Below, piece after piece: positions 2,762 to 15,370 of a stretch of DNA of 64,000 nucleotides (positions are counted from its first letter, which is position 1; the number at the start of each line of letters is the position of its first letter). The position numbers and the translations under genes are program-made. The DNA comes from Chitinophaga pinensis (lineage in GTDB: Bacteria; Bacteroidota; Bacteroidia; Chitinophagales; UBA10324): NCBI GenBank assembly GCA_945903305.1, contig CAMDOA010000007.1:1027-65026 (forward strand). The letters run 5' to 3'. The notes beneath the pieces are model-generated. The model made no database searches. It saw only the letters and a list, made by a program, of their open reading frames with translations, and was not told the origin of the DNA.

Positions 2762-5700
2762 TTATTGTTTATTCGGATTTATTTCTTTTTTACCTGATTC
2801 AATAAATTGCATGCGCGAAACAAAAGTGTTCTTTTTGTTTTCGCTGGCAACAGTGTATTGATATATTTTTCCATCATCAGTTTTTGTTCTTCGCTTTTCG
2901 GGGTCAATGGCATTCAGTTCAATCATCCAGGTTCTATCACCACTTAGTATTTGCATATTATTATTTTGATAGAAAAAATAATAATATTTATCATCATCAC
3001 CGGGGATATATAAATTCATGTAATCACCACTTTTTTTATAGCCGATTTCAAGGTAAGCCCCTTGAATTACACGGTTAATGGCGGTAGGGCCGATATAGGA
3101 TATTCCGATAGGCCCTTTCGAATAAAATGAACGGGTTTCTTTATCCCAGACTAAATGTAAATCGGTAAAGAAAATGGTGTATTTAAATTCTTCTGGTTTT
3201 TTAAAGGTTCCATCCTTGTTCATTTGCTCGTTAAATTTTTTATCATTTTTAGGTGAAATAAATTCTGGTATATTTTTATTAAAATCGTCGCTGAAATAAT
3301 CAATATCTTCCTGACTGAAATTATTTGCAAGCACTGTTTTTCCCATCATTTCAAGCAGGTTTTCTTTTATTTCAAATTGTAAACCCATCAGTAATGTGAA
3401 CTTGTATTCGTTTTTAATAAGATCAGTATTTATATATCCGCCTGCCTGCACATCCACCAATCCGAAATTTAAACCCATATCCATTTTCCCTTCAGCATAA
3501 ACTTTTGCGGTGGCATCATTGTACTTGATAAAATTTCCACGCGCAGTTTCATTCAAAATTTTGTCGGCATTGCCTGCTAAAAATTCTTTCTTGGTTTCGT
3601 CGTAATACACAATTCCATTAGCAAGAAAAAGATTGCGGTCCTTACTTGTTTTTTTTGCCTGAAAAAATGCAGTATATAAATCAGATGAATCGGCTCCGAA
3701 AACAATTCCAACCGTTGCGGGTTTGTGATTTAAATCTTCCGGATCCTGATAATAAATTAATGAAGAATCAGAGGTGAAATTATTGTTGATGCTGAACCAC
3801 TCCGCCCGAACATTCGGGTTATTTAATTGCAACTTGGCATAGCCGGAAAAATTAAGCGGCTCCTCGATGGATTTAATATTTACCAGTCCACGATAATAAA
3901 TTTTTGGAATCAGTTGAAATTTTTGTGAAGTATCAATCGTGGTTTTTGCATAAGTGCGTAAATTTTTTGTACTGTCTTTATAAACTCCGATGTCGGTGAA
4001 ATTTATTTTTTGCTTATTGCCGTTTTTACCTACAAAACTATAATCACCGCTTGCTTTATAACTCTGCTTGCCATAAACATTTGCTGTTACATTAAAAAAA
4101 CTATGAAACTCATTTATTGTATCGGTTATAATTTTTGCTTTAACCAGCGTGCGCATTTTTGCTTCCGGTTCAACCACCACTTTTCCGCTGTCGGGAAAAA
4201 TTTTAGCATCAACCACACTGATGTATGGAACATCACTCACTTTTAATATAAAATCGGTCAGCGAATAATTAGCTGAACTTCCTGTAAAAGTGAGTAAATC
4301 CTGATCGGGATGAATACTGGTAAATTCGGCTTCAGTACCTGCGGGTGCAATAAATTTTAAATTCTTTTTTGCCATGTCCCATTTAAATTCATTCATGGAT
4401 GTTCGGTACTGATTGTATGGAAGTTCGGTAGCAATATCATCAGTATTTGATTTAAACTCACCAATCTGTTTATCAAAATCAATGTTTGCATTTACATTTT
4501 TGGTGGTAAGAGCAAATTTTTTCGGGTCAATGGATTTAATAACAAAATCAGAAGTATCAGCGGCCATTTTATTTTTTCCGAAACTTATGTCGCCCGACTT
4601 CAATGTGGCATCAGCCCAATCAACTGTTCCGCTTCCTTTTAATCCATTAGGTGTTAGTACAAGTGTGCCGGTCATATCGGTTTCTTTACCAAACATTTTA
4701 AATGGAATGGAATCAACGCTAACCATCATACTATCTGAATAGGGTTTCCATAAAACTTTTACTTCACGACCTTCCACGGTCGGGTATTCAACTCCACCAT
4801 AAGTTGAAGCTTTCATATCAAACAATTTCGCTGTCGCTTTAGTTGAATCTGGAAAAAATATAATGTTATCACTTTGTGTTACAGATGGTAAATAATTAAT
4901 CTGTCCTTTTCCAAGTAAACCTTTATTATCTAACGAAATAGTATTTGTATAATTTCCTTTTCCGCCATACATGGGCAGTACAGTTCTTTTGGTTATAAAT
5001 CCAAGCGACAAATCTTTTTGTATTCCGATTGGCTGAACGATATCAGGAAAAATTCCGGCAGAAACTAATTTCCCTTTGAACTCAACCTTTGAGGGTATAA
5101 AGGCATTTAAACTATCGAAAACAAAAGGATCTAATTGATAATAAAATTTATTTTTTTCATAAACATTTTTTTGTGCTGAAGGCCTCTCATAAAAAACAAA
5201 GGAATGATCGGTTGATTTTAAAGATGGAAAGGCCCAGGTTCTAACCTTACCGCTTTTATTAAACTTGCTGTCAATTTGTAGTTCACCAGTTAGTCGTTCA
5301 ATAAAACTATGGATGGGCACAAGAATGGGTGCGCCGGTTTTATCGCGTTGGCCGCTTGGCAAATTAATAAGCATACTGTCAACAGTGGTTAAGTTTAGTT
5401 TCCAGTCGTCGTATTGCAATCCGAATCCTTTACCGTACATATCCACCCTGCCAGCAAATAATTTTCCATCGAAATCCAAATCGCGGTTTTTCTTTTCAAT
5501 TAAACTATCGTTACGGGGAAAAATGACCACGAAATTTGAATCGCTGATCAGCACGCTTTTTACACCTTTGATATTCATGTTATAACTTCCTAAATCAATT
5601 TGCGCATTCGTGTTTCCTTTTGGGGTCGAAAGAATTTTAATATCGTCGTAATCCATTCTTTTCTGATCCGATAAAACATAGTTGATTGTTTTTTGCCGAA

Positions 5701-7222
5701 CAGTTACTAGTTCTTTTGCTTCGTCGTAATAAATAAATCCATCTTCCACTAATTTATAAAGTGTTCGCCTGATAGTTTCGGAGTTATAGGAAGGAGAAAT
5801 AAATTTGGCTAATTCCTCAGTATAAATTTCTTTGGTATTATTTTTTTCAGTGTATTTTTTTATTTGATTAATAATATTAAAGTCAGCAACATTCTGATAT
5901 TTATCTAACCGTCCTTTTTCAAAATAATTAACCGATTCGTAACTCGATTCGCCTGAAGCAGCACCCTGAATTTCACTCATCCTGATGGTGGGTTCATCTA
6001 ATCGCCAGTAAACCGCATCGGCAAAAATTTCATTTTGATGATAGGAGTCAAAAAACGGAGAGCGGGCAATACCATCCTTGCCTCTTTCTAAAACAAGCTG
6101 CTTGGTGCTCACGCGATATTTTAAAGTGACACCTGAATGATAGATGGAGTCTTTGCCGAGATATATTTTTATTTCAGCAGCAGGAGAATAAATATCTTCA
6201 AATTTTTTAATTACAAATGTGTTTGCATAAGCCCGAACACCAATTACCTGATCATATCGTTTTAGCTCCAACATAGCCTTCGCATCTTTAACACCACTGC
6301 AACTCAGTTTGCTTCCCTGAATAGAAATGGCACCGCGCAAAGCCGCATTGTCGGCTACATTATCAATTAAAATATTATGGTCGTAAGTTATAAAGCGTGG
6401 ATAGCTACTGTTTTCAGGTGTATTGTTGGCTAAAAGTTTATCCTGAAACTGACCTTGTAATTCTTTTTTTAAAAAAGGTGAATAGGTTATGTAAGCCGAT
6501 TCAACTGTGTATTCACTTTTGTCTAAATCAATTTTGTATCCATTAAAACGCGCAAACACCTGCGATCCATCTAATCCGGCACGCGACCAGTCAACCATAC
6601 CTTTTGTTCCAATCCACATTTTATCAATCGGATAAAATTTACCCGAAGTGTTATGAATAATAATGGTATCGCCATTTGTAATGCCTAACAATTCAGTACT
6701 GCTGATAATAGCCACCGGAATTTGATCAATAAAATCAAGCGTGAAATCTGATGCGGTTATTTTCCATATTCTTCCCGGTGCAATGTTTAGCGCGTTTTCA
6801 TTGAAAATAGATCGGCTGAAATCAATGTATTCCTGAAAAGCTTTGTTATTGCCTTTTGGTAAATTTTTTACTAATTGTGTAAGCGTGCTGCTCCATTCAT
6901 CAAAAGTGTTTGACGAAATTTTTCCGCCCGCATAAGCATTCACTGCTATAACAAAATCGCGGAAGTAGGGCATCACCAGCATTTTTCTTGTGCGCATTAA
7001 ATTGGCTATTTCAATCATGCTGTTTTGCTGCGAGCCATTTAATTTTAACCACGAAGTTTCAAAATCTTTTGCAGCCTCTACACAATCCGGCTGCTTGGTG
7101 CTGTTCAGCAAATTCATTAATTCTTTTTGAAAGTTCGACGCTTCAAATGCTTTGTCAGATTGTGCGATTGAAATGGTTGTTAAAAAAATTAAGCAGAAAA
7201 AAATTCGAAAAAATAATTTCAT
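2762..7222 (-). CDS. very large (1486 aa) secreted protein of unknown function
   Basis: Uninterrupted 4.4-kb ORF with an N-terminal signal peptide (LTTISIAQS). The ATG overlaps the prmA stop (ATGA). I recognise no catalytic motif. Confidence 0.8.
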   Translation of the reverse strand: MKLFFRIFFCLIFLTTISIAQSDKAFEASNFQKELMNLLNSTKQPDCVEAAKDFETSWLKLNGSQQNSMIEIANLMRTRKMLVMPYFRDFVIAVNAYAGGKISSNTFDEWSSTLTQLVKNLPKGNNKAFQEYIDFSRSIFNENALNIAPGRIWKITASDFTLDFIDQIPVAIISSTELLGITNGDTIIIHNTSGKFYPIDKMWIGTKGMVDWSRAGLDGSQVFARFNGYKIDLDKSEYTVESAYITYSPFLKKELQGQFQDKLLANNTPENSSYPRFITYDHNILIDNVADNAALRGAISIQGSKLSCSGVKDAKAMLELKRYDQVIGVRAYANTFVIKKFEDIYSPAAEIKIYLGKDSIYHSGVTLKYRVSTKQLVLERGKDGIARSPFFDSYHQNEIFADAVYWRLDEPTIRMSEIQGAASGESSYESVNYFEKGRLDKYQNVADFNIINQIKKYTEKNNTKEIYTEELAKFISPSYNSETIRRTLYKLVEDGFIYYDEAKELVTVRQKTINYVLSDQKRMDYDDIKILSTPKGNTNAQIDLGSYNMNIKGVKSVLISDSNFVVIFPRNDSLIEKKNRDLDFDGKLFAGRVDMYGKGFGLQYDDWKLNLTTVDSMLINLPSGQRDKTGAPILVPIHSFIERLTGELQIDSKFNKSGKVRTWAFPSLKSTDHSFVFYERPSAQKNVYEKNKFYYQLDPFVFDSLNAFIPSKVEFKGKLVSAGIFPDIVQPIGIQKDLSLGFITKRTVLPMYGGKGNYTNTISLDNKGLLGKGQINYLPSVTQSDNIIFFPDSTKATAKLFDMKASTYGGVEYPTVEGREVKVLWKPYSDSMMVSVDSIPFKMFGKETDMTGTLVLTPNGLKGSGTVDWADATLKSGDISFGKNKMAADTSDFVIKSIDPKKFALTTKNVNANIDFDKQIGEFKSNTDDIATELPYNQYRTSMNEFKWDMAKKNLKFIAPAGTEAEFTSIHPDQDLLTFTGSSANYSLTDFILKVSDVPYISVVDAKIFPDSGKVVVEPEAKMRTLVKAKIITDTINEFHSFFNVTANVYGKQSYKASGDYSFVGKNGNKQKINFTDIGVYKDSTKNLRTYAKTTIDTSQKFQLIPKIYYRGLVNIKSIEEPLNFSGYAKLQLNNPNVRAEWFSINNNFTSDSSLIYYQDPEDLNHKPATVGIVFGADSSDLYTAFFQAKKTSKDRNLFLANGIVYYDETKKEFLAGNADKILNETARGNFIKYNDATAKVYAEGKMDMGLNFGLVDVQAGGYINTDLIKNEYKFTLLMGLQFEIKENLLEMMGKTVLANNFSQEDIDYFSDDFNKNIPEFISPKNDKKFNEQMNKDGTFKKPEEFKYTIFFTDLHLVWDKETRSFYSKGPIGISYIGPTAINRVIQGAYLEIGYKKSGDYMNLYIPGDDDKYYYFFYQNNNMQILSGDRTWMIELNAIDPEKRRTKTDDGKIYQYTVASENKKNTFVSRMQFIESGKKEINPNKQ

Positions 7223-8055: not shown

Positions 8056-8385
8056 TTTTATTAAGTGTTATTTCTGAAATTGGGTATTCATTAAAATTTT
8101 ATTCGAAGGCAATGAAGCAAAAACCTGACTTCAAATAGAAGACTTTTGAATGCATAATTTATATCGATACAAATTTAATTATGAGTAGGAGGGATGTGGG
8201 TTCCAAAAGGGTGCAATTGAAACTCAGTTGTAGAGTAGCATTAAATTTTATTTAACGAAAATTAGACAGGTCGGTTTGGAGTAAATAAGTTTAAATTAAA
8301 ATGAGAAAGGAAGCTCGGCACAAAAAAAATATTTTCATAAACAGGTTTTTGATGATTTTATTTGCAAATACAACAACTAAAAAAT

Positions 8386-8895
8386 ATGAGCGACCCGATT
8401 AACAGTTTACAAAACGACGAACTATTCTTTGAGGCTGACGGGCAAATTGCGCAGGGAAAAATAAGTGAAGCACTCTCCACACTCGAAGCCATTTTACTGG
8501 AAGACCCGACCTATGGAAAAGCATACAATCACATGGGTTGGATTTATGAAACCAAATTCAAAGACTATACAAATGCTGAAGAGTTTTATAAAAAATGCTA
8601 TGCTTATTCACCGGATTATCCGGCTATTTACACCAACCTATCCATTATGCTTTCAACGCTTGGCAAGTATGATGAACTGGAAAGTTTTATAAAAAAAGGA
8701 TTGGAGGTAGCAGGAACTGATAAAGCTGCATTGTATAATGAATATGCAATCATGTTTGAACTGAAAGGTGATTACAATAAAGCGATTGAGCAATTTAAAA
8801 ATGCTGTTCGCTATTCGCTGAACGATGTGAATGTTGAAACCTATTCAAAATCAATTGCCCGTTGTAAAAAGAAAATGGAATTGCTGGGCGAATAA
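8386..8895 (+). CDS. TPR-repeat protein
   Basis: TPR-like Y/A-rich repeats (GKAYNHMGWIYE, AEEFYKKCYAYSPDY, ALYNEYAIMFELKGDYNKAIEQF). The ORF-track start at 8362 is TTG; the in-frame ATG at 8386 is preferred. Confidence 0.7.
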   Translation: MSDPINSLQNDELFFEADGQIAQGKISEALSTLEAILLEDPTYGKAYNHMGWIYETKFKDYTNAEEFYKKCYAYSPDYPAIYTNLSIMLSTLGKYDELESFIKKGLEVAGTDKAALYNEYAIMFELKGDYNKAIEQFKNAVRYSLNDVNVETYSKSIARCKKKMELLGE

Positions 8896-9373: not shown

Positions 9374-9463
9374 TAATTTTTTTGTTTGATGCAAGATTAA
9401 TTGCATTGCTGAATAGTTGCATTTCAAAGGAATGAAATTTATTCACGCCACTTTCAAAATATT

Positions 9464-11542
9464 CTACTTCACTACTATCAGTTTTTTTATTTCCATAAAA
9501 TCAGCAGATTGCAATTGCACCAAATAAATTCCCTGTGAAATATTTTTCAGATTCACCGCTTGAGAATTATAATTTGATTCTTTAACATAAATAGTTTCGC
9601 CAAGCATATTGGTGATTGCGATTTTATATGCTGATAACTCTTTACTTATTACTGTGAATTGCTCACTGGCAGGATTTGGAAAAATCTGAAATCCAAATTC
9701 TGAATTCTCATGTTCATTTATTCCAACTCCGGCAACCGAAAAACAAAAGGAAGTATCAGTGCAACCATTTTGTGTTATTGCGACAGCATAATTTCCGTTG
9801 GCTGTTGCAGTAAAAATCTGATTGGTTGCTCCGCTGATTATTGCAAAACTGCTATCGCAATTGAGCCATTGATAATTTGCGGCGGCGGCGTTGGCAGTTA
9901 GTGTAATGCCACTTTGTGTTAATGAAGGATCAACTGAATTGATTGTGAGATTGATTGAAATGATGCTATCACATCCAGCAACATTTGGAATTGTATCTTG
10001 ATAAATACCTGAGGTTGACCAGATGTAATTACCACTCGGGGAAATATAATTATCGCATGCAGTTAAGCTAAAATTTGCTAGTGTAAAACTACAGAGTGAA
10101 AGTTTACCAACTGAAATATCTAAGGAATAGTTTGCTCCAATATTAATTAATAATGCAGAATCAAATGAAACAGAATCACTATAAAATGAGCCTGCAAAAT
10201 ACAGGAAACCTAAATTTTTAATAGTTATCGAATTACCTTAATCAGTATTTGAACCACCCATTGATTTTACCCATGCAAAATTACCCGCACTACTCAGCTT
10301 AGAAATATACATATCTCTGTTCCCTAATGAAGTTACATTATAAACCCCAACTCCTGGATCAAAATCTACTGTTCCCCAAAAAACACCTGTTGTATAAACG
10401 CTTCCCAAAGCATCAATTTGAATTGAATATGCCATATCATAACCACCACCGGTAAATGGTTTCGCCCACACAAAATCTCCATTGTTGTCAAGTTTAGAAA
10501 TAAAAATATCTCTATTTACTGTCGATACTAAACCAAAATATGATGTGTCAGGATCAAAATCAACAGAACCTAAAAGCCAACCTGTTGTAAGAACATTACC
10601 AAAATCATCCAGTGCAATTGATAAAGGCCCAAGGCTTCCTGAACCTCCAAATGATTTTGCCCAAATAAAATTTCCGGAATTATCTGATTTATAAAGAAAC
10701 ATATCTGAACCACCAGTAGTTGATAATGAAATTAAATTATATACCCCAATTCCTGGGTCAAAATCAACCGTATCTACAAAATTTCCGGTAGTATATATAT
10801 TACCAGCTGAATCTAGTGTAATTGCGGTGCCGGCATTATTGTATGTTCCACCAATATTTTTTACCCATACAAGATTTCCCGTGTTATCTAATTTCGATAT
10901 AAAAATATCAGAATATCCAATTGAAGTCACATTGAATATTCCGGTTCCAGTATCAAAATCCACTGCTCCAGTAAAAAAACCTGTTAAGAAAACATCGCCA
11001 AAATTATTAACATAAATCGAGGTAATCTCATCATAACCCGACCCGCCAATCTGTTTAGCCCAAATAAAATTTCCATTGGAATCAATTTTTGAAATGAACA
11101 TATCTTCATAACCATTCGAAATTAAATTAAAAGTCGCTCCACCTGGGTCAAAGTCAACAGTATCTTCAAAATATCCGGCGAAATAAATATTGCCATACAT
11201 ATCCAGTCCAATTGTTAGCGGAAAGTCATATCCTATTCCACCCATTGATTTAGCCCAAAATAAATTTCCAGAACTATCATATTTGGAAATAAAAATATCA
11301 TAGATACCATTAGAAGTTAAATTTTGAATTCCAATTCCCGGATCAAAGTCAAATGATCCACCAAATGCTCCACCAAATACTCCAACAATATAAATATTTC
11401 CCTTTTCATCTGAGGTCATTGATTTCGAAACTCCACTATGTGATCCTCCTAATCCTTTTGCCCATAACCAATCTGGTGCTTGTGCATTTGATTTTGAAAT
11501 AAAAAGTAAAAACAAAATAAGCGGCAGCAGTATTTTTTTCAT
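9464..11542 (-). pseudogene. SBBP beta-propeller-repeat surface protein with T9SS C-terminal sorting domain, interrupted by one in-frame TAA at 10238-10240
   Basis: The track ORF 10238..11542 has a signal peptide plus about eight repeats of the form GG.G.D...SI..D..GN.Y..G.F.G..DFDPG. Hand translation past the TAA in the same frame stays open for 257 codons. It ends in FQIFPNPASEQFTV...GIYLVQLQSADFMEIKKLIVVK, with the stop at 9464-9466. Confidence 0.75.
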
Positions 11543-11579
11543 TTCTTAATGTATTTATCAAACCTAATCATATTTTTTT

Positions 11580-11648
11580 TCACGCCACTAACATATCCCG
11601 CGCATCAGGTTGCTTCATTAAATCTACATTGGTAATCGCGTCAACTTT
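11580..11648 (-). pseudogene. relic copy of the last ~22 codons plus stop of the DnaE2-like gene
   Basis: Translates to KVDAITNVDLMKQPDARDMLVA-stop, versus the live end KLDFITREDLMKQPDKQDMLVA-stop at 12245-12313. By hand alignment, 54 of 69 nt are identical with no gaps. Confidence 0.65.
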
Positions 11649-11684
11649 TACAAAGTTTTTAGCTTTTGAAAAGTTTTAAAAAAA

Positions 11685-11972
11685 TTATTTTTTCTCCGGA
11701 TTCATACTCGTATGCTTCAATCGATAAATTGCAATTGTTTTTTCTTTTTCATTCACCACAAAATGTACGAGGTATGGAAATTTATTTACGAGACGACAGC
11801 GAACTTCATCGTATCGAACCTGAAAAAACGGATTGGTTTTTAATTCTTTGAATGTTGATTTCACTTTTGTGTGAAACCGTTTTCCTAATCCTGATTGTTG
11901 CTCGTTGTAATAATCAATGGCTGCTTGTATATCATCAATGGCTTCGTGGTAAATAATAATTTTGAAAGCCAT
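11685..11972 (-). CDS. type II toxin, RelE/ParE family
   Basis: 95 aa. The ParE-like pattern is IIYHEAIDDIQAAIDYY...RCRLVNKFPYLVHFVVNEKEKTIAIYRLKH. The start overlaps the stop of the upstream small gene. Confidence 0.8.
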   Translation of the reverse strand: MAFKIIIYHEAIDDIQAAIDYYNEQQSGLGKRFHTKVKSTFKELKTNPFFQVRYDEVRCRLVNKFPYLVHFVVNEKEKTIAIYRLKHTSMNPEKK

Positions 11973-12178
11973 CAGCTCAAACGGAAAGTGTCAACTACAT
12001 CCTTCCATTCCTTCATATCAGCCGGCTTTGCGTTTTTAATTCGGTTGCGGACAATATTTTTTTCTTCTTCGCTTATATCAAAGTCATGGTTGTTCTCTTT
12101 CACAAAATCCAAACTCTTAATCAGTTCAACAAAAAAGTTGTACTTGTTTTCCGGAATATTCAAAATGATTTGTTTCAT
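11972..12178 (-). CDS. putative antitoxin (addiction-module component)
   Basis: 68-aa acidic protein immediately upstream of the ParE-like gene, overlapping it by 1 nt. This is the canonical antitoxin-first arrangement. Confidence 0.6.
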   Translation of the reverse strand: MKQIILNIPENKYNFFVELIKSLDFVKENNHDFDISEEEKNIVRNRIKNAKPADMKEWKDVVDTFRLS

Positions 12179-12244
12179 GGTTTAAAAGTTTCGCACTCCA
12201 AAAATAAAATGAAAACGATTAACAACGGCTAACTATTATTTTTT

Positions 12245-15200
12245 TCAAGCCACTAACATATCCTGTTTATCAGGTTGTTTCATTAAATCTTCTCTTGTAA
12301 TAAAATCAAGTTTGTGCATGGCAGTAATTTCCAAACTGTAAAAACCAAACTCTTCCGCCACTCTTCCCATGATTCGGTAGCAACCTCGCCCGCGAAACGG
12401 AAACATTTTTGTTTCATTTGGAAAATGGGTGGTGTCGAAAAAAAATCCATCTCGGTCGAGCCAGGTGCCAAAGCGCATTTCATCGCCGCGCTTGGTTCGT
12501 GTGTACTTGGTGGTTACGAGGTAGCCAATCATCATAACTATTTTTCCATTGTGGTTTTTTAAATCGTGTGCAAGCCTCACCCCTAACCCCTCTCCTAAGG
12601 AGAGGGGGACAGTCGCTGTATTTGAAGAAGTTGTATCAAACTCCTTCAACAAATCAAAAGGTGAACACAATGGAAAACCGAGCAATTCAATTTCATCGAG
12701 GGCATCATCGAGTTGATGGTGCGAGAGAACGGGTAAAGTAAAATTGGTTGGAGGCATGGCGAAAAGTTCGGGATGCGGAGCGGTGTGTTTTTCGTTGCCG
12801 AGTACGGTATGAATATCCCACAGCAATTGTTTTTTGCTGCGACCAGTGAAACGAAAAGCACCGATGCGCACGAGTATGCGCAACTGATCGAGTGTGCAAT
12901 TCACCCGATTGCAAAAATCTTCAAGGCCGAGAAATGCGCCATGCAATTTCCGTTCAGTTTCTATTCGCTGCGAAGTAGTTGCTTCCATTTCGGCGAGGTG
13001 AATGAAGCCAAGAAAAATATCATCACCAGTAATTGTTGTGAGGTGATTACTTCGGTTAATATCAGGTGCATGAATATTGGCGCCGCTCATGCGCGCTTCG
13101 TGCACATAAAATTCGGTGTGATAAAATCCACCGAAATTATTTATCACGCCCACCATAAATTCTTTCGGGTAATATGTTTTCAAAAACAAACTCTGGTAAC
13201 TCTCCACCGCATACGATGCCGAATGCCCTTTTGAAAAAGCATAGCCGGCAAAGCTTTCAATCTGCCGCCACACTTCGGCTGTAATTTTTCGCTCGTAACC
13301 TTTCGCATCACAATTCGCAAAAAATTTTTCTTTCACTTTATCAAACTCTTCGCGACCGCGAAATTTTCCTGACATGCCGCGCCGCAACATATCAGCTTCG
13401 GTGAGTGTGAGTCCGGCAAAGTAGTGCGCCACTTTTATCACATCTTCCTGATACACCATGATGCCGTAAGTTTCGGCCATCAGCTCCTGCATGAACGGAT
13501 GAATGTAACTACGCTGCGAAGCATCGCGATGGCGAACAATGTATTCGCGCATCATTCCTGAACTCGCCACGCCTGGGCGAATGATGGAACTCGCCGCCAC
13601 GAGCGACAAGTAATTATCGACTTCTAATTTTTTCAGCAGCATGCGCATGGCAGGGCTCTCAATGTAAAAGCAGCCCATGCACCGTGCATCGCGCAGGTTG
13701 GCTTTCATGTTTTCGTCCTGCTTAAATTTTTTTATATCGTGAATGTCAATTTCAATGGTGCGGTTTTGTTTTACAATTTCCACCGTGTCTTTTATGTGTC
13801 CGAGTCCGCGTTGCGAGAGAATATCGAATTTATAAAGGCCCACATCTTCGGCTTCAATCATACTGAATTGCGAAACCGGAAAACCTTTTGGCGGATTACT
13901 CAGTGCCGTATAATAAGTGAGTGGCCTTTCTGAAATTAAAATTCCACCTGCATGAATGCCAAGGTGCGCGGGGAAACCATACAAGCGCTCCACATAACGA
14001 TAAATTAATTTTCCGATTTCGTGCGGTGGTTCGCTTCGTCTGTAATTATCGGAGAGTGAATCAATTTCATTTTTCGGCAAACCAAAAACTTTTCCCAACT
14101 CACGAATCACGGCGTTGGCTTTGAACTCGCTGTAGGTGGCGAGCATGCTGGCGCATTTATTTTTTCCATACTTGTTCAGAATAAATGCAATTACCTCGTC
14201 GCGATCTTTCCAACTGAAATCCAAATCGAAATCGGGCGGGCTGGTGCGCGATGGATTGATGAACCGCTCGAAATACAAATCCAGATCAATGGGGTCAACA
14301 TCCGTTATGCGCAACAGGTAAGCCACCATGCTGTTAGCGCCGCTGCCACGACCGATGTAAAAAAAATTCTTTCGTTGCGCGAACGATACAATGTCGTGAT
14401 TGATGAGAAAGTACGAAGCGAAATTTCCTTCGTGTATCATGCCCAGTTCTTTTTCCAGTCGCTCCAGGATTTTTTCATCTACCGTTTCATAGCGATACTT
14501 CAGTGCCTCGTAACTGAGCTTGCGCAATTGCTGCATATCGCTTTCCACGCTTCCGGTAAACTGTTTTTTGTTCTTGCTTTTTCCGAAATAAAAATCAATG
14601 TTGCATTGCCTCAATAATTTATTTGCATTATCAATGAGGAAAGGAAACAGTGCGAAAATTTTTTGTGCTTCTGATTCTGTCATCATCGCTTCGGTTTCAT
14701 CAGCAGTTTCAGTTTTAGATAATTTGCTGAGCAAAGTATTATTGGCAACAGCACGCAACAACCGGTGAATGTTAAAATCAATTTTGGTGCTGACTGTTAC
14801 CGTACACAGCGCCACTAATTTTTCCGGTTGATTTTTCAGTTTGGAAAAAAGCAGTTTGTTAATGTCGGTATGGCAAATGCCGATGAATTCATTTTCGCTG
14901 AGCGTAGGTGGTTGCTTGCCGAAGGGATAGACGATGAAAACATTTTCACATACCGATGCACGCAAAGGAATCGGTTCTTCGGTTTGTAAATGATGTGTGA
15001 GTAATTCATTCAGTTCGCGAAAACCCTCGTTGTTTTTTGCGATGCCGATGAATTGTTGTTGTGCGCCGTTGCGAAAATCAATTCCAACTACGGGAGAAAC
15101 ATGGTGCTTCGGAGCAAGGCGCACAAAGTCGAGCACACCGGATGTGTTATTGATGTCTGTGAGAGCTATCCGTTGGATGTTATTTTTTTTCGCCTCGCCG

Positions 15201-15265
15201 AGCAACCGCTCAATGCTGAGTGCGCCGTATTTTAAACTGAAGTAACTGTGGCAATTGAGAAACAT
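12245..15265 (-). CDS. dnaE2: DNA polymerase III alpha subunit, short (1006 aa) DnaE2/ImuC-like form
   Basis: N-terminal PHP domain (MFLNCHSYFSLKYG...ALTDINN) and a polymerase core (GRGSGANSMVAYLLRITDVDP, FDILSQRGL, YQEDV). It is far shorter than a replicative Bacteroidota DnaE. Confidence 0.75.
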   Translation of the reverse strand: MFLNCHSYFSLKYGALSIERLLGEAKKNNIQRIALTDINNTSGVLDFVRLAPKHHVSPVVGIDFRNGAQQQFIGIAKNNEGFRELNELLTHHLQTEEPIPLRASVCENVFIVYPFGKQPPTLSENEFIGICHTDINKLLFSKLKNQPEKLVALCTVTVSTKIDFNIHRLLRAVANNTLLSKLSKTETADETEAMMTESEAQKIFALFPFLIDNANKLLRQCNIDFYFGKSKNKKQFTGSVESDMQQLRKLSYEALKYRYETVDEKILERLEKELGMIHEGNFASYFLINHDIVSFAQRKNFFYIGRGSGANSMVAYLLRITDVDPIDLDLYFERFINPSRTSPPDFDLDFSWKDRDEVIAFILNKYGKNKCASMLATYSEFKANAVIRELGKVFGLPKNEIDSLSDNYRRSEPPHEIGKLIYRYVERLYGFPAHLGIHAGGILISERPLTYYTALSNPPKGFPVSQFSMIEAEDVGLYKFDILSQRGLGHIKDTVEIVKQNRTIEIDIHDIKKFKQDENMKANLRDARCMGCFYIESPAMRMLLKKLEVDNYLSLVAASSIIRPGVASSGMMREYIVRHRDASQRSYIHPFMQELMAETYGIMVYQEDVIKVAHYFAGLTLTEADMLRRGMSGKFRGREEFDKVKEKFFANCDAKGYERKITAEVWRQIESFAGYAFSKGHSASYAVESYQSLFLKTYYPKEFMVGVINNFGGFYHTEFYVHEARMSGANIHAPDINRSNHLTTITGDDIFLGFIHLAEMEATTSQRIETERKLHGAFLGLEDFCNRVNCTLDQLRILVRIGAFRFTGRSKKQLLWDIHTVLGNEKHTAPHPELFAMPPTNFTLPVLSHHQLDDALDEIELLGFPLCSPFDLLKEFDTTSSNTATVPLSLGEGLGVRLAHDLKNHNGKIVMMIGYLVTTKYTRTKRGDEMRFGTWLDRDGFFFDTTHFPNETKMFPFRGRGCYRIMGRVAEEFGFYSLEITAMHKLDFITREDLMKQPDKQDMLVA
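12587..12607. repeat. GC-rich perfect hairpin (9-bp stem CCCCTCTCC/GGAGAGGGG, loop TAA) embedded in-frame in the polymerase CDS
   Basis: Read directly at 12587-12607. It encodes part of VPLSLGEGLGVR, and the local GC is far above the surrounding gene. Confidence 0.85.
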
Positions 15266-15270
15266 AATGA

Positions 15271-15312
15271 TTGTAATACAGACAAATATATGCTTGTATT
15301 ACAGTCTTTCAA
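15271..15312 (-). promoter_or_regulatory. Bacteroidota-type promoter (TTG-N19-TATATTTG) bracketed by two TGTAnTACA palindromes
   Basis: On the minus strand, TTG is the rc of 15310-15312 and TATATTTG is the rc of 15283-15290. TTGTAATACAG lies at 15271-15281 and TTGTATTACAG at 15294-15304. The proximal palindrome arm (TGTAATACA, 15272-15280) ends 6 nt from the dnaE2 ATG. Confidence 0.55.
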
Positions 15313-15370
15313 AAAATCCGATATATAAATTCGGTAAACCGAAAATGAACACTCAATTACTTAAATGATG

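Follow-up and report, generated by a model that had tools for sequence, protein, structure and literature searches.

The 64,000-nucleotide stretch of contig CAMDOA010000007.1 from Chitinophaga pinensis (hereafter the window, meaning this whole stretch) contains a small toxin-antitoxin (TA) cassette. It lies between the 3' end of a DNA polymerase gene and a second, diverged copy of that 3' end, here called the relic. The polymerase gene (12245..15265, minus strand, 1006 aa) encodes a DnaE-family (C-family) alpha subunit with the Pfam domains PHP, DNA_pol3_alpha, finger and HHH_6. It passes the superfamily model TIGR00594 only (NCBIfam; 514.9 bits against a cut-off of 434). The label dnaE2 of the original prediction could not be verified, since the protein falls short of the error-prone subfamily model NF004225 (471.6 bits, cut-off 939). 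As was noticed there, the interval between the two copies holds only two open reading frames (ORFs), those of an antitoxin (68 aa) and a ParE-like toxin (95 aa). The cassette unit measures 665 bp. The polymerase gene, both cassette genes and the gene of an SBBP beta-propeller protein beyond the relic are all on the minus strand.

The ungapped identity of 54 of 69 nt between 11580-11648 and 12245-12313, first counted by hand, was confirmed, together with the named identical runs and the shared TGA end of both copies on the minus strand. The relic ends in KVDAITNVDLMKQPDARDMLVA and a stop codon, and the live gene in KLDFITREDLMKQPDKQDMLVA and a stop codon. A repeat search extended the pair to 85 nt (11564-11648 and 12229-12313, 78% identity, 665-nt spacing), which run approximately 16 nt past the stop codon. 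For comparison, the repeat was divided into segment A (24 nt), a core (21 nt) and segment B (24 nt including the stop). The live gene end (copy 1; 12229..12313, minus strand) consists of the native segment A1 (12290-12313, KLDFITRE), the core (12269-12289, DLMKQPD), the cassette-associated tail B1 (12245-12268, KQDMLVA and stop) and an A-run after the stop (12229-12244). The relic (copy 2; 11564..11648, minus strand) consists of A2 (11625-11648, KVDAITNV), which was seen only in relics, the core (11604-11624), B2 (11580-11603, ARDMLVA and stop), which is the tail of relatives without the TA pair, and its own A-run (11564-11579). Directly after the core, the copies differ at five of six nucleotides (AAACAG in the live copy, GCGCGG in the relic), and the next 18 nt are identical.

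A chance match, another gene family or a generic intergenic repeat can be ruled out as a source of this pair with near certainty. All that favors such a source is that the A/T runs at the edge of the repeat are of low complexity. The 54 identities lie about nine standard deviations (sd) from the window-wide mean for 69-mers (19.3, sd 3.8, both strands), and the next best placements reach 42 and 37. The 15-mer GCCACTAACATATCC, with at most two mismatches, occurs in the window at the two repeat sites only. Two or more matches were found in 0 of 100 dinucleotide shuffles, and the window holds no further copy. Both copies share their reading frame and the C-terminal motif K-x-D-x-I-T of the family, and the structure is reproduced in L093, an independent assembly from Logan (reads of SRR23086378). 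An assembly artefact was rejected as well, the copies being only 78% identical and the layout being independently reproduced in L093.

The toxin gene (11685..11972, minus strand) encodes a ParE/RelE-family protein that matches PF05016, ParE_toxin (3e-8, 34.5 bits, cut-off 23), and no NCBIfam model. Its plasmid homologues, about 30% identical, are annotated as RelE/ParE toxins; no phage homologue was found. The antitoxin gene (11972..12178, minus strand) is situated directly upstream, and its stop overlaps the toxin start codon (TGATG). The antitoxin has no Pfam match of its own, but is 43% identical (E 5e-16) to the antitoxin of metagenome locus L095, which passes the cut-off of PF09720 (Unstab_antitox, "putative addiction module component"). 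Between the window and L093, the ratio of non-synonymous to synonymous differences per site (pN/pS) amounts to 0.03 in the antitoxin gene and 0.18 in the toxin gene, with pS of 0.17-0.37. The TA pair is therefore under purifying selection and looks functional rather than like a pseudogene pair. Judged by its sequence, the cassette would qualify as a type II ParE/RelE TA module, with toxicity and neutralisation predicted.

The -7 motif of Bacteroidota sigma-A promoters is TAnnTTTG. The stretch TATTTTTG (12199..12206, minus strand), about 20 nt upstream of the antitoxin ATG, matches this motif as read from the sequence, and the cassette probably has its own putative promoter. An imperfect palindrome (11643..11675), with a single match in the window, is situated between relic and toxin stop. 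In the relative L003 it is a perfect 15-bp stem, and its fold is more stable than that of shuffled sequences there (z -4.8) but not in the window (z -0.3). The palindrome as a conserved RNA or DNA structure was set aside, as it is significant in L003 and not in the window or L093, and no clear covariation is seen. Around the variable hexamer, a small CCTG...CAGG stem was considered and likewise dropped, since relatives do not conserve it. No Rfam family, tRNA or intrinsic terminator was detected in or around the cassette.

The origin of the repeat becomes clearer from relatives of the polymerase gene. These came from five protein clusters 92-94% identical to the polymerase and from three related freshwater Chitinophagaceae/Bacteroidota metagenome-assembled genomes (MAGs) obtained by a GTDB scan; over the gene, they are about 90% identical to the window in nucleotides. 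The TA pair is absent from L001, L002, L013, L097, L098 and L099, which have a single gene end of the form A1-core-B2 (..KQPDARDMLVA, stop). This relic-type tail in six TA-less contigs is what the original prediction had proposed to look for. The TA pair is also absent from L004, L014, L096 and L015, where a single end with the tail HTL(K/Q)VA and stop (B3) is followed by lipocalin-like and TPR genes. In L093, the TA pair is present in the order A1-core-B1, antitoxin, toxin, palindrome and a relic A2'-core-B2, the live end reading KQDMLVA and the relic end ARDMLVA. Because the TA-less ends read ARDMLVA and L093 has this layout, the last eight codons of the live gene can be assigned to the cassette, and the host tail to the relic, into which it was displaced. 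Downstream of 71 more distant DnaE-family loci from GTDB, no relic of the gene's own 3' end was found, only chance matches of 14-19 nt; a gene-end relic is thus not a general property of this polymerase gene.

Compared with the TA-less L001, segment A matches at 23 of 24 nt in the live copy and at 15 of 24 in the relic, whereas segment B matches at 18 of 24 in the live copy and at 21 of 24 in the relic. The core matches at 19-21 of 21 nt in all copies. Segment by segment, the TA-less end therefore equals segment A of the live copy, the core and segment B of the relic. Such a composition would be expected if the two repeats recombine in the core. All relatives, whether they have the TA pair or not, retain A1 at 23-24 of 24 nt. 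The A2 version was not encountered among the polymerase genes and proteins found in the database. It is without the arginine conserved in the C-terminus of the polymerase family, so A2 is not a functional allele. The loss of this residue fits a segment that never enters the live gene, provided that crossovers stay in the core.

These comparisons alter the original prediction of a replacement gene end brought by the cassette. The prediction stands for the last eight codons of the live gene and fails for the rest of the repeat. Its figures for GC content are right (44.6% in the gene body, 29.0% in the live end, 43.5% in the relic and 32.2% in the cassette). The argument built on them is inverted: in the live copy, the 5' half, which is AT-rich, is native, and its GC-rich counterpart in the relic is not what the host originally had. 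The relic cannot be regarded as the original host end either: it is a hybrid, and its A2 segment is absent from the polymerase genes found.

Relative L003 adds a further combination. It has no TA pair, and its polymerase ORF runs through A1 and "DLM" into the palindrome and then A2-core-B3, followed by the lipocalin-like gene. Its A2 and core are identical to the window relic at 45 of 45 nt and are accompanied by the same palindrome, while the polymerase genes differ by 10%. In L003, A2 and the core are joined to the host tail AQHTLKVA and stop, the tail type of the TA-less L004, L014 and L015. Taken together, A2 plus core is found joined to two host tails, B2 and B3, and either tail also occurs in TA-less relatives whose downstream context corresponds. 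All combinations of A and B were seen except A2-B1, the predicted cassette-borne form. L003 thus keeps both copies without a TA pair, fused in frame, which formally touches the finding named in advance as speaking against the original prediction (TA-less relatives with both copies). The fused copies are best read as a deletion scar of 66 nt. The perfect 15-bp palindrome of L003, AACTTTTCCAAAGTT-TTT-AACTTTGGAAAAGTT (3403-3435), is located inside the polymerase coding sequence, to which it adds 22 in-frame codons.

Segment A of the relic differs at 5 of 24 positions between the window and L093, and its evolution looks neutral. No difference is seen in the relic core among the window, L093 and L003. 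By our estimate, made for the single window-L093 pair, an unchanged core at neutral rates has a chance of about 0.001-0.02. Since the core is identical in three lineages and this is unlikely at neutral rates, it is either constrained or repeatedly homogenised.

The mosaic can be accounted for by entry of the cassette into the polymerase gene end through a Campbell-type single crossover with a decoy copy of that end carried by the cassette, an explanation to which we give about an even chance. A compact, self-promoted ParE/RelE-type cassette would enter the last codons of the DnaE-family gene by one reciprocal crossover inside the 21-nt core GATTTAATGAAGCAACCTGAT. The partners would be the chromosomal end, A1-core-B(host), and the diverged cassette-borne copy, palindrome-A2-core-B1. 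One product would be the live gene, composed of host A1, the core and the cassette tail B1. The other product would be the relic, composed of cassette A2, the core and the displaced host tail B2. We infer here a circular or otherwise linked intermediate of cassette plus gene end, insertion rather than repeated loss, and the enzyme. Homologous or homeologous recombination by the host is slightly favored over a recombinase acting in trans.

Similar arrangements occur around other cassettes. Sequences upstream and downstream were compared at 64 metagenome loci with toxins 29-57% identical to that of the window, 58 of which were testable. Strong direct repeats were obtained at several of the 58 loci, and at four of these they overlap a neighbour's 3' end. 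The neighbours are a recX-like gene convergent with the TA pair in L127 (repeat of 72 nt, 87.5% identity), an unnamed upstream gene in L112 (76 nt, 91%), a nadC-like gene in L118 (36 nt, 94%) and a Pfam T2SSF-family gene of a secretion/pilus operon in L095 (24 nt, 92%). The names recX-like and nadC-like were read from C-terminal sequences and are putative. In L127, the live gene ends in the cassette-side sequence (..VMLR, stop), and the relic runs on into another end (..EINRL, stop) and holds a stop codon; of the nine differences in this repeat, six leave the amino acid of the target gene unchanged. At L145 (4414-5436), a cassette is enclosed by the live 3' end of a 236-aa gene and a relic of this gene 159 nt long, and seven of eight differences within this repeat are synonymous in the target frame. 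The identification of the L145 cassette as PIN/VapC-like is putative and comes from the N-terminal motif MRIYLDTSVIGG... only. As the decay of a duplicate made in place should yield mostly non-synonymous differences, the synonymous excess at L145 and L127 suggests that two alleles each evolved as working gene ends before they were joined, in line with the idea of a replacement end.

With full flanks required, repeats above the threshold were found at 6 of 39 real positions and at 4 of 112 shifted controls. Two of the four control matches proved to be other TA cassettes, namely a MazEF-like unit in the L107 array and the putative PIN/VapC-like cassette of L145. In the background, 16 comparable repeat pairs were present in 1.43 Mb, none of them obviously TA.

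Several loci show arrays or repeats of other kinds. L120/L121 (2671-3423) is a tandem TA array in which a 99-nt leader (95% identity) precedes two successive antitoxin genes. L107 (2795-6276) carries ParE-type, RelE-like and MazEF-like pairs in tandem along with another antitoxin of the window's family, and its 147-nt repeat includes the 3' end of the mazF-like gene. In L090, an 83-nt direct-repeat pair brackets 2.3 kb beside a DnaE-family locus. Just outside this pair is a small ORF (2597-2812) with a SymE/AbrB-like motif (..IKLSGLWLDRLGF..), putative and recognised by eye.

A number of observations weigh against a single-crossover insertion. With 21 nt, the identity does not exceed the minimum that RecA-dependent exchange usually needs. 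The relatives with an "empty site" are about 10% diverged and have rearranged flanks on both sides, so that the polarity could be either: an old insertion with later losses through the repeats would produce this mosaic too. Exact look-up of the window toxin and the lipocalin-like protein returned no other assembly of the window strain. No A2-core-B1 junction, whether as a free or a donor form, was found. Most coding differences between the window copies are non-synonymous, unlike those of L145 and L127. Differences cluster only marginally along the 85 nt (permutation p = 0.04), and this was given up as a statistical claim; the longest identical run within the pair is not significant. The enrichment of 6/39 over 4/112 is modest (p of about 0.02-0.05 by our estimate), most loci of the toxin family have no flanking repeat, and none was found at L094, the closest homologue elsewhere, situated between guaB and the next gene.

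Enzymes of integration were sought by a Pfam scan of 45 ORFs of the window: 40 of at least 158 aa (37 of at least 190 aa), the polymerase, the two cassette ORFs, the SBBP gene and the lipocalin-like gene; the large ORF 2762-7222 (minus strand) was left out. No integrase, transposase or resolvase domain was found among these 45 ORFs, in agreement with the earlier remark that no recombinase is present. The integrase-type mechanism considered at that time is neither needed nor evidenced. The genes of the neighbourhood are housekeeping genes. The 64 kb contain no tRNA gene. The core pattern GATTTRATGAARCAACCTGAT had no match among viral contigs of IMG/VR or metagenome contigs of JGI. The tail pattern GATATGTTRGTGGCNTGA had eight matches in IMG/VR, approximately the chance number for 16 specified bases. 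No larger elements were found at the polymerase 3' end in 11 related contigs, although absence from such samples proves nothing.

Three other origins of the repeat pair have to be considered. Long target duplication in situ would mean that break repair or replication slippage copied about 85 nt and that the identical copies diverged later, with protein constraint acting on the live one and the relic drifting neutrally. The neutral look of relic segment A with its lost arginine agrees with this, as do the mostly non-synonymous differences in the window and the fact that relic and live A match at 15 of 24 nt in the window and at 18 of 24 in L093, the L093 version being intermediate between A1 and A2. 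The precedent among restriction-modification (RM) systems was itself described as target duplication (PMC2853133). A duplication would, however, have to place five substitutions within six neighbouring positions of the live tail and leave the following 18 nt identical, and it leaves unexplained why A2 plus core (45/45) stands on two host tails in polymerase lineages that are 10% diverged. It also predicts about 40% synonymous differences at L145 by our estimate, whereas seven of eight were seen. We regard duplication in situ as unlikely.

Comparable doubt attaches to a decayed integrase-bearing element, similar to the cis-mobilizable elements (CIMEs), that would have integrated site-specifically at the polymerase 3' end, its attP supplying the surrogate end, and would have been deleted down to the TA pair between attL and attR, or else to a cassette mobilised in trans by a recombinase encoded elsewhere. 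Exchange inside a short conserved core is indeed implied by the hybrid ends, the core of the relic does not vary among three lineages, and the palindrome adjoins the relic. Tandem accretion in the window (a second insert and a third tail fragment) and the gene-less scar of L003 resemble arrays of CIMEs and microCIMEs (PMC7563491). What makes this origin improbable is the failure to find any integrase or recombinase domain among the scanned ORFs, any core match in IMG/VR or JGI contigs, or any relic downstream of the 71 more distant orthologues. Moreover, the repeats of related cassettes, 24-159 nt long and taken from unrelated targets, are a misfit with one site-specific system, and the same extreme decay would be required at each related locus. 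An integron-like array, with the repeats as attC-type sites and the TA pair as a cassette in an integrase-less cluster (CALIN), was rejected on its defining features and is very improbable. TA pairs are typical cargo of chromosomal integrons. Three repeat copies in the window separate two inserts, and L107 and L120 have tandem TA arrays with repeats of 99-147 nt. The window repeat, however, plainly derives from a polymerase coding end that is conserved in orthologues without the cassette, and no RYYYAAC/GTTRRRY core pair was seen at its edges on reading the sequence. Its single strand is no more stable than shuffled sequences (z +1.4 and -0.55), and no intI-like ORF was found among the scanned ORFs of the 64 kb.

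Beyond the relic, the window holds another inserted segment. The relic does not adjoin the ancestral neighbour of the polymerase gene, which counts against the original prediction: an SBBP gene with a type IX secretion system (T9SS) tail and a third tail fragment intervene before the lipocalin-like gene. The fragment TTTGAAAGTGGCGTGA (9443..9458, minus strand, 16 nt; ..LKVA, stop) is the end of an HTLKVA-type tail. It directly precedes the lipocalin-like gene (9427-8951), which is preceded by the same tail type in relatives; a TPR gene lies at 8362-8895. The SBBP gene (9464..11542, minus strand) is the second inserted segment, located between the relic and the third tail fragment, and it is missing there in L003, L004, L014 and L015. 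Its beta-propeller and T9SS C-terminal sorting domain form one frame of 692 codons broken by a single in-frame TAA (10238-10240), which could reflect a pseudogene, a sequencing error or read-through. The segment (11579-9459) is bracketed by a short polymerase-tail repeat, AGTGGCGTGAA.AAA (repeat family D12), which suggests that this gene end had received an insertion before. The gene of a secreted protein that corresponds to it in L093 shares only the promoter and signal-peptide region with the window. After it comes the promoter region of pssA known from L001-type genomes, not the lipocalin-like gene.

The polymerase gene itself is unusual in several respects. Its GC content of 44% is an outlier among 43 window ORFs (mean 36%, sd 2.6). 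Nucleotide homology of the relatives L001, L004, L013, L014, L097 and L003 to the window (12245-15317) starts about 52 nt before the polymerase ATG and ends at its 3' end. As upstream neighbour, the window has pyrD, L001 and L004 have a GEVED/CHU_C gene, and L097 has fusA. Because homology has these limits and upstream neighbours differ between close relatives, the gene either lies between rearrangement breakpoints on both sides or is mobile itself. Alignment columns 300-600 (about 14650-14950 of the window) have 69-74% identity to all relatives compared with 88-95% elsewhere, and L015 has an extra stretch of about 230 nt near these columns. This N-terminal stretch is hypervariable or recombined. 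Relatives carry a gene for a Y-family polymerase (Pfam IMS) and one that is LexA-like (HTH_3 and Peptidase_S24) 2-4 kb downstream of the polymerase gene (5493-7758 in L003, 3645-5827 in L096), and both are absent from the 64-kb window. Their proximity is a hint, and suggestive only, that the polymerase may be part of an SOS-mutagenesis set.

The mobility of chromosomal TA pairs has long been a loose end: they are patchy and horizontally transferred, and mostly lie outside recognisable mobile elements. The locus and its relatives offer a concrete, testable route, by which a TA pair linked to a copy of a host gene end enters by one crossover and leaves a mosaic repeat. The footprint was found at four other genes for the same toxin family and once for an unrelated, putative PIN-type cassette. 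On a broader and more tentative view, which we hold to be less probable than the insertion itself, small TA cassettes may be mobile units without a recombinase that carry a decoy of a host gene 3' end as a portable attachment site. Such a unit would exit by recombination between the flanking repeats and enter the orthologous gene of a related genome by one crossover in a short conserved core, its own tail completing the gene. The part upstream of the core, being unexpressed, would decay, and the core would be kept by selection on the mobility of the cassette. If this is true, the "virus-like cycle" proposed by Kobayashi for RM systems would extend to classical TA systems, and the frequent position of TA pairs tightly against gene ends would be explained. 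If it is general, TA mobility would be linked to the unexplained "long target duplication" insertions of RM systems, and a gene-end relic just beyond a TA pair would become an annotation signature for dating and tracing insertions. If an integrase acting in trans is responsible, the 21-nt core would be a new attachment site in freshwater Chitinophagaceae.

Among known systems, TA cassettes of integrons share with the window a compact two-gene TA unit set off by repeats of 60-150 nt. The window differs from them in that no integrase or attC architecture was found and the repeat is a coding gene end. Homology-facilitated illegitimate recombination in natural transformation, reportedly described by de Vries and Wackernagel in 2002, also lets foreign DNA enter beside a homologous anchor without an enzyme of a mobile element. 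It is said to produce deletions in the recipient, not flanking duplications, and no microhomology junction was identified at the window locus. In prophages and islands inserted at the 3' ends of tRNA or protein genes, sequence borne by the element completes the gene and the displaced 3' part is found at the far end, just as in the window. Unlike the window cassette, these elements encode a tyrosine or serine integrase, and no homology is expected upstream of the crossover, whereas the window has a decayed copy of the upstream 24 nt.

CIMEs and microCIMEs of streptococci are units bounded by att sites at the 3' ends of protein genes, without genes of recombination or transfer and often in tandem (PMC7563491). 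Direct repeats at a gene 3' end (85 nt in the window) are common to both cases, and the gene-less remnants of 130-220 bp (PMC7563491) are comparable to the 66-nt scar of L003. CIMEs are, however, deletion derivatives of integrative and conjugative or integrative mobilizable elements, with a known integrase family and target, and no parent, integrase or attP was found for the window. The window unit of 665 bp is also below the 1.2-13 kb of gene-carrying CIMEs (PMC7563491).

Insertion with long target duplication was defined for RM systems by a complete module of less than 20 kb, a repeat of more than 30 bp, a single copy of the repeat at the empty locus and no mobility gene (PMC2853133); the mode is also traced to Gene 259:99 (2000), as cited in PMC2853133. 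Its mechanism is treated as unknown in that literature, breaks made by the restriction enzyme having been suggested as a common cause, and a "virus-like" cycle of invasion, amplification and release through repeats was proposed for the modules (PMC2853133). A review of 2013 ascribes the mode to RM systems only (PMC3874152). In form, the window agrees with the description of Furuta et al. 2010: the 665-bp insert consists of the module alone, the repeat is 85 nt long (78% identity), and no mobility domain is present in the scanned ORFs. A single copy, A1-core-B2, is found in six TA-less contigs, these relatives being about 10% diverged and having different downstream genes. Within the 64-kb window, the core occurs at the repeat sites only, and the repeat is not multicopy in this stretch. 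The cargo is a ParE-type TA pair rather than an RM system, which makes the window like this class in form and places it outside its described membership.

Both systems thus consist of a small module of post-segregational killing without a mobility gene, with direct repeats of tens to about 100 bp that vary in length by locus and are single-copy without the insert. Breakage by a restriction enzyme, on the other hand, cannot apply directly to a TA pair. The window repeats are imperfect mosaics (78%), and those of two other loci differ mainly at synonymous sites, therefore two alleles appear to have been joined rather than a copy made on the spot. The literature searched contains no report of this mode for classical TA cassettes, which is not proof of absence. 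That the window represents a TA version of long-target-duplication insertion, known so far for RM genes, and is new in this respect, is a claim for and against which the balance is roughly equal. Insertion with long target duplication of RM systems is the closest precedent for the window cassette, with the CIMEs next.

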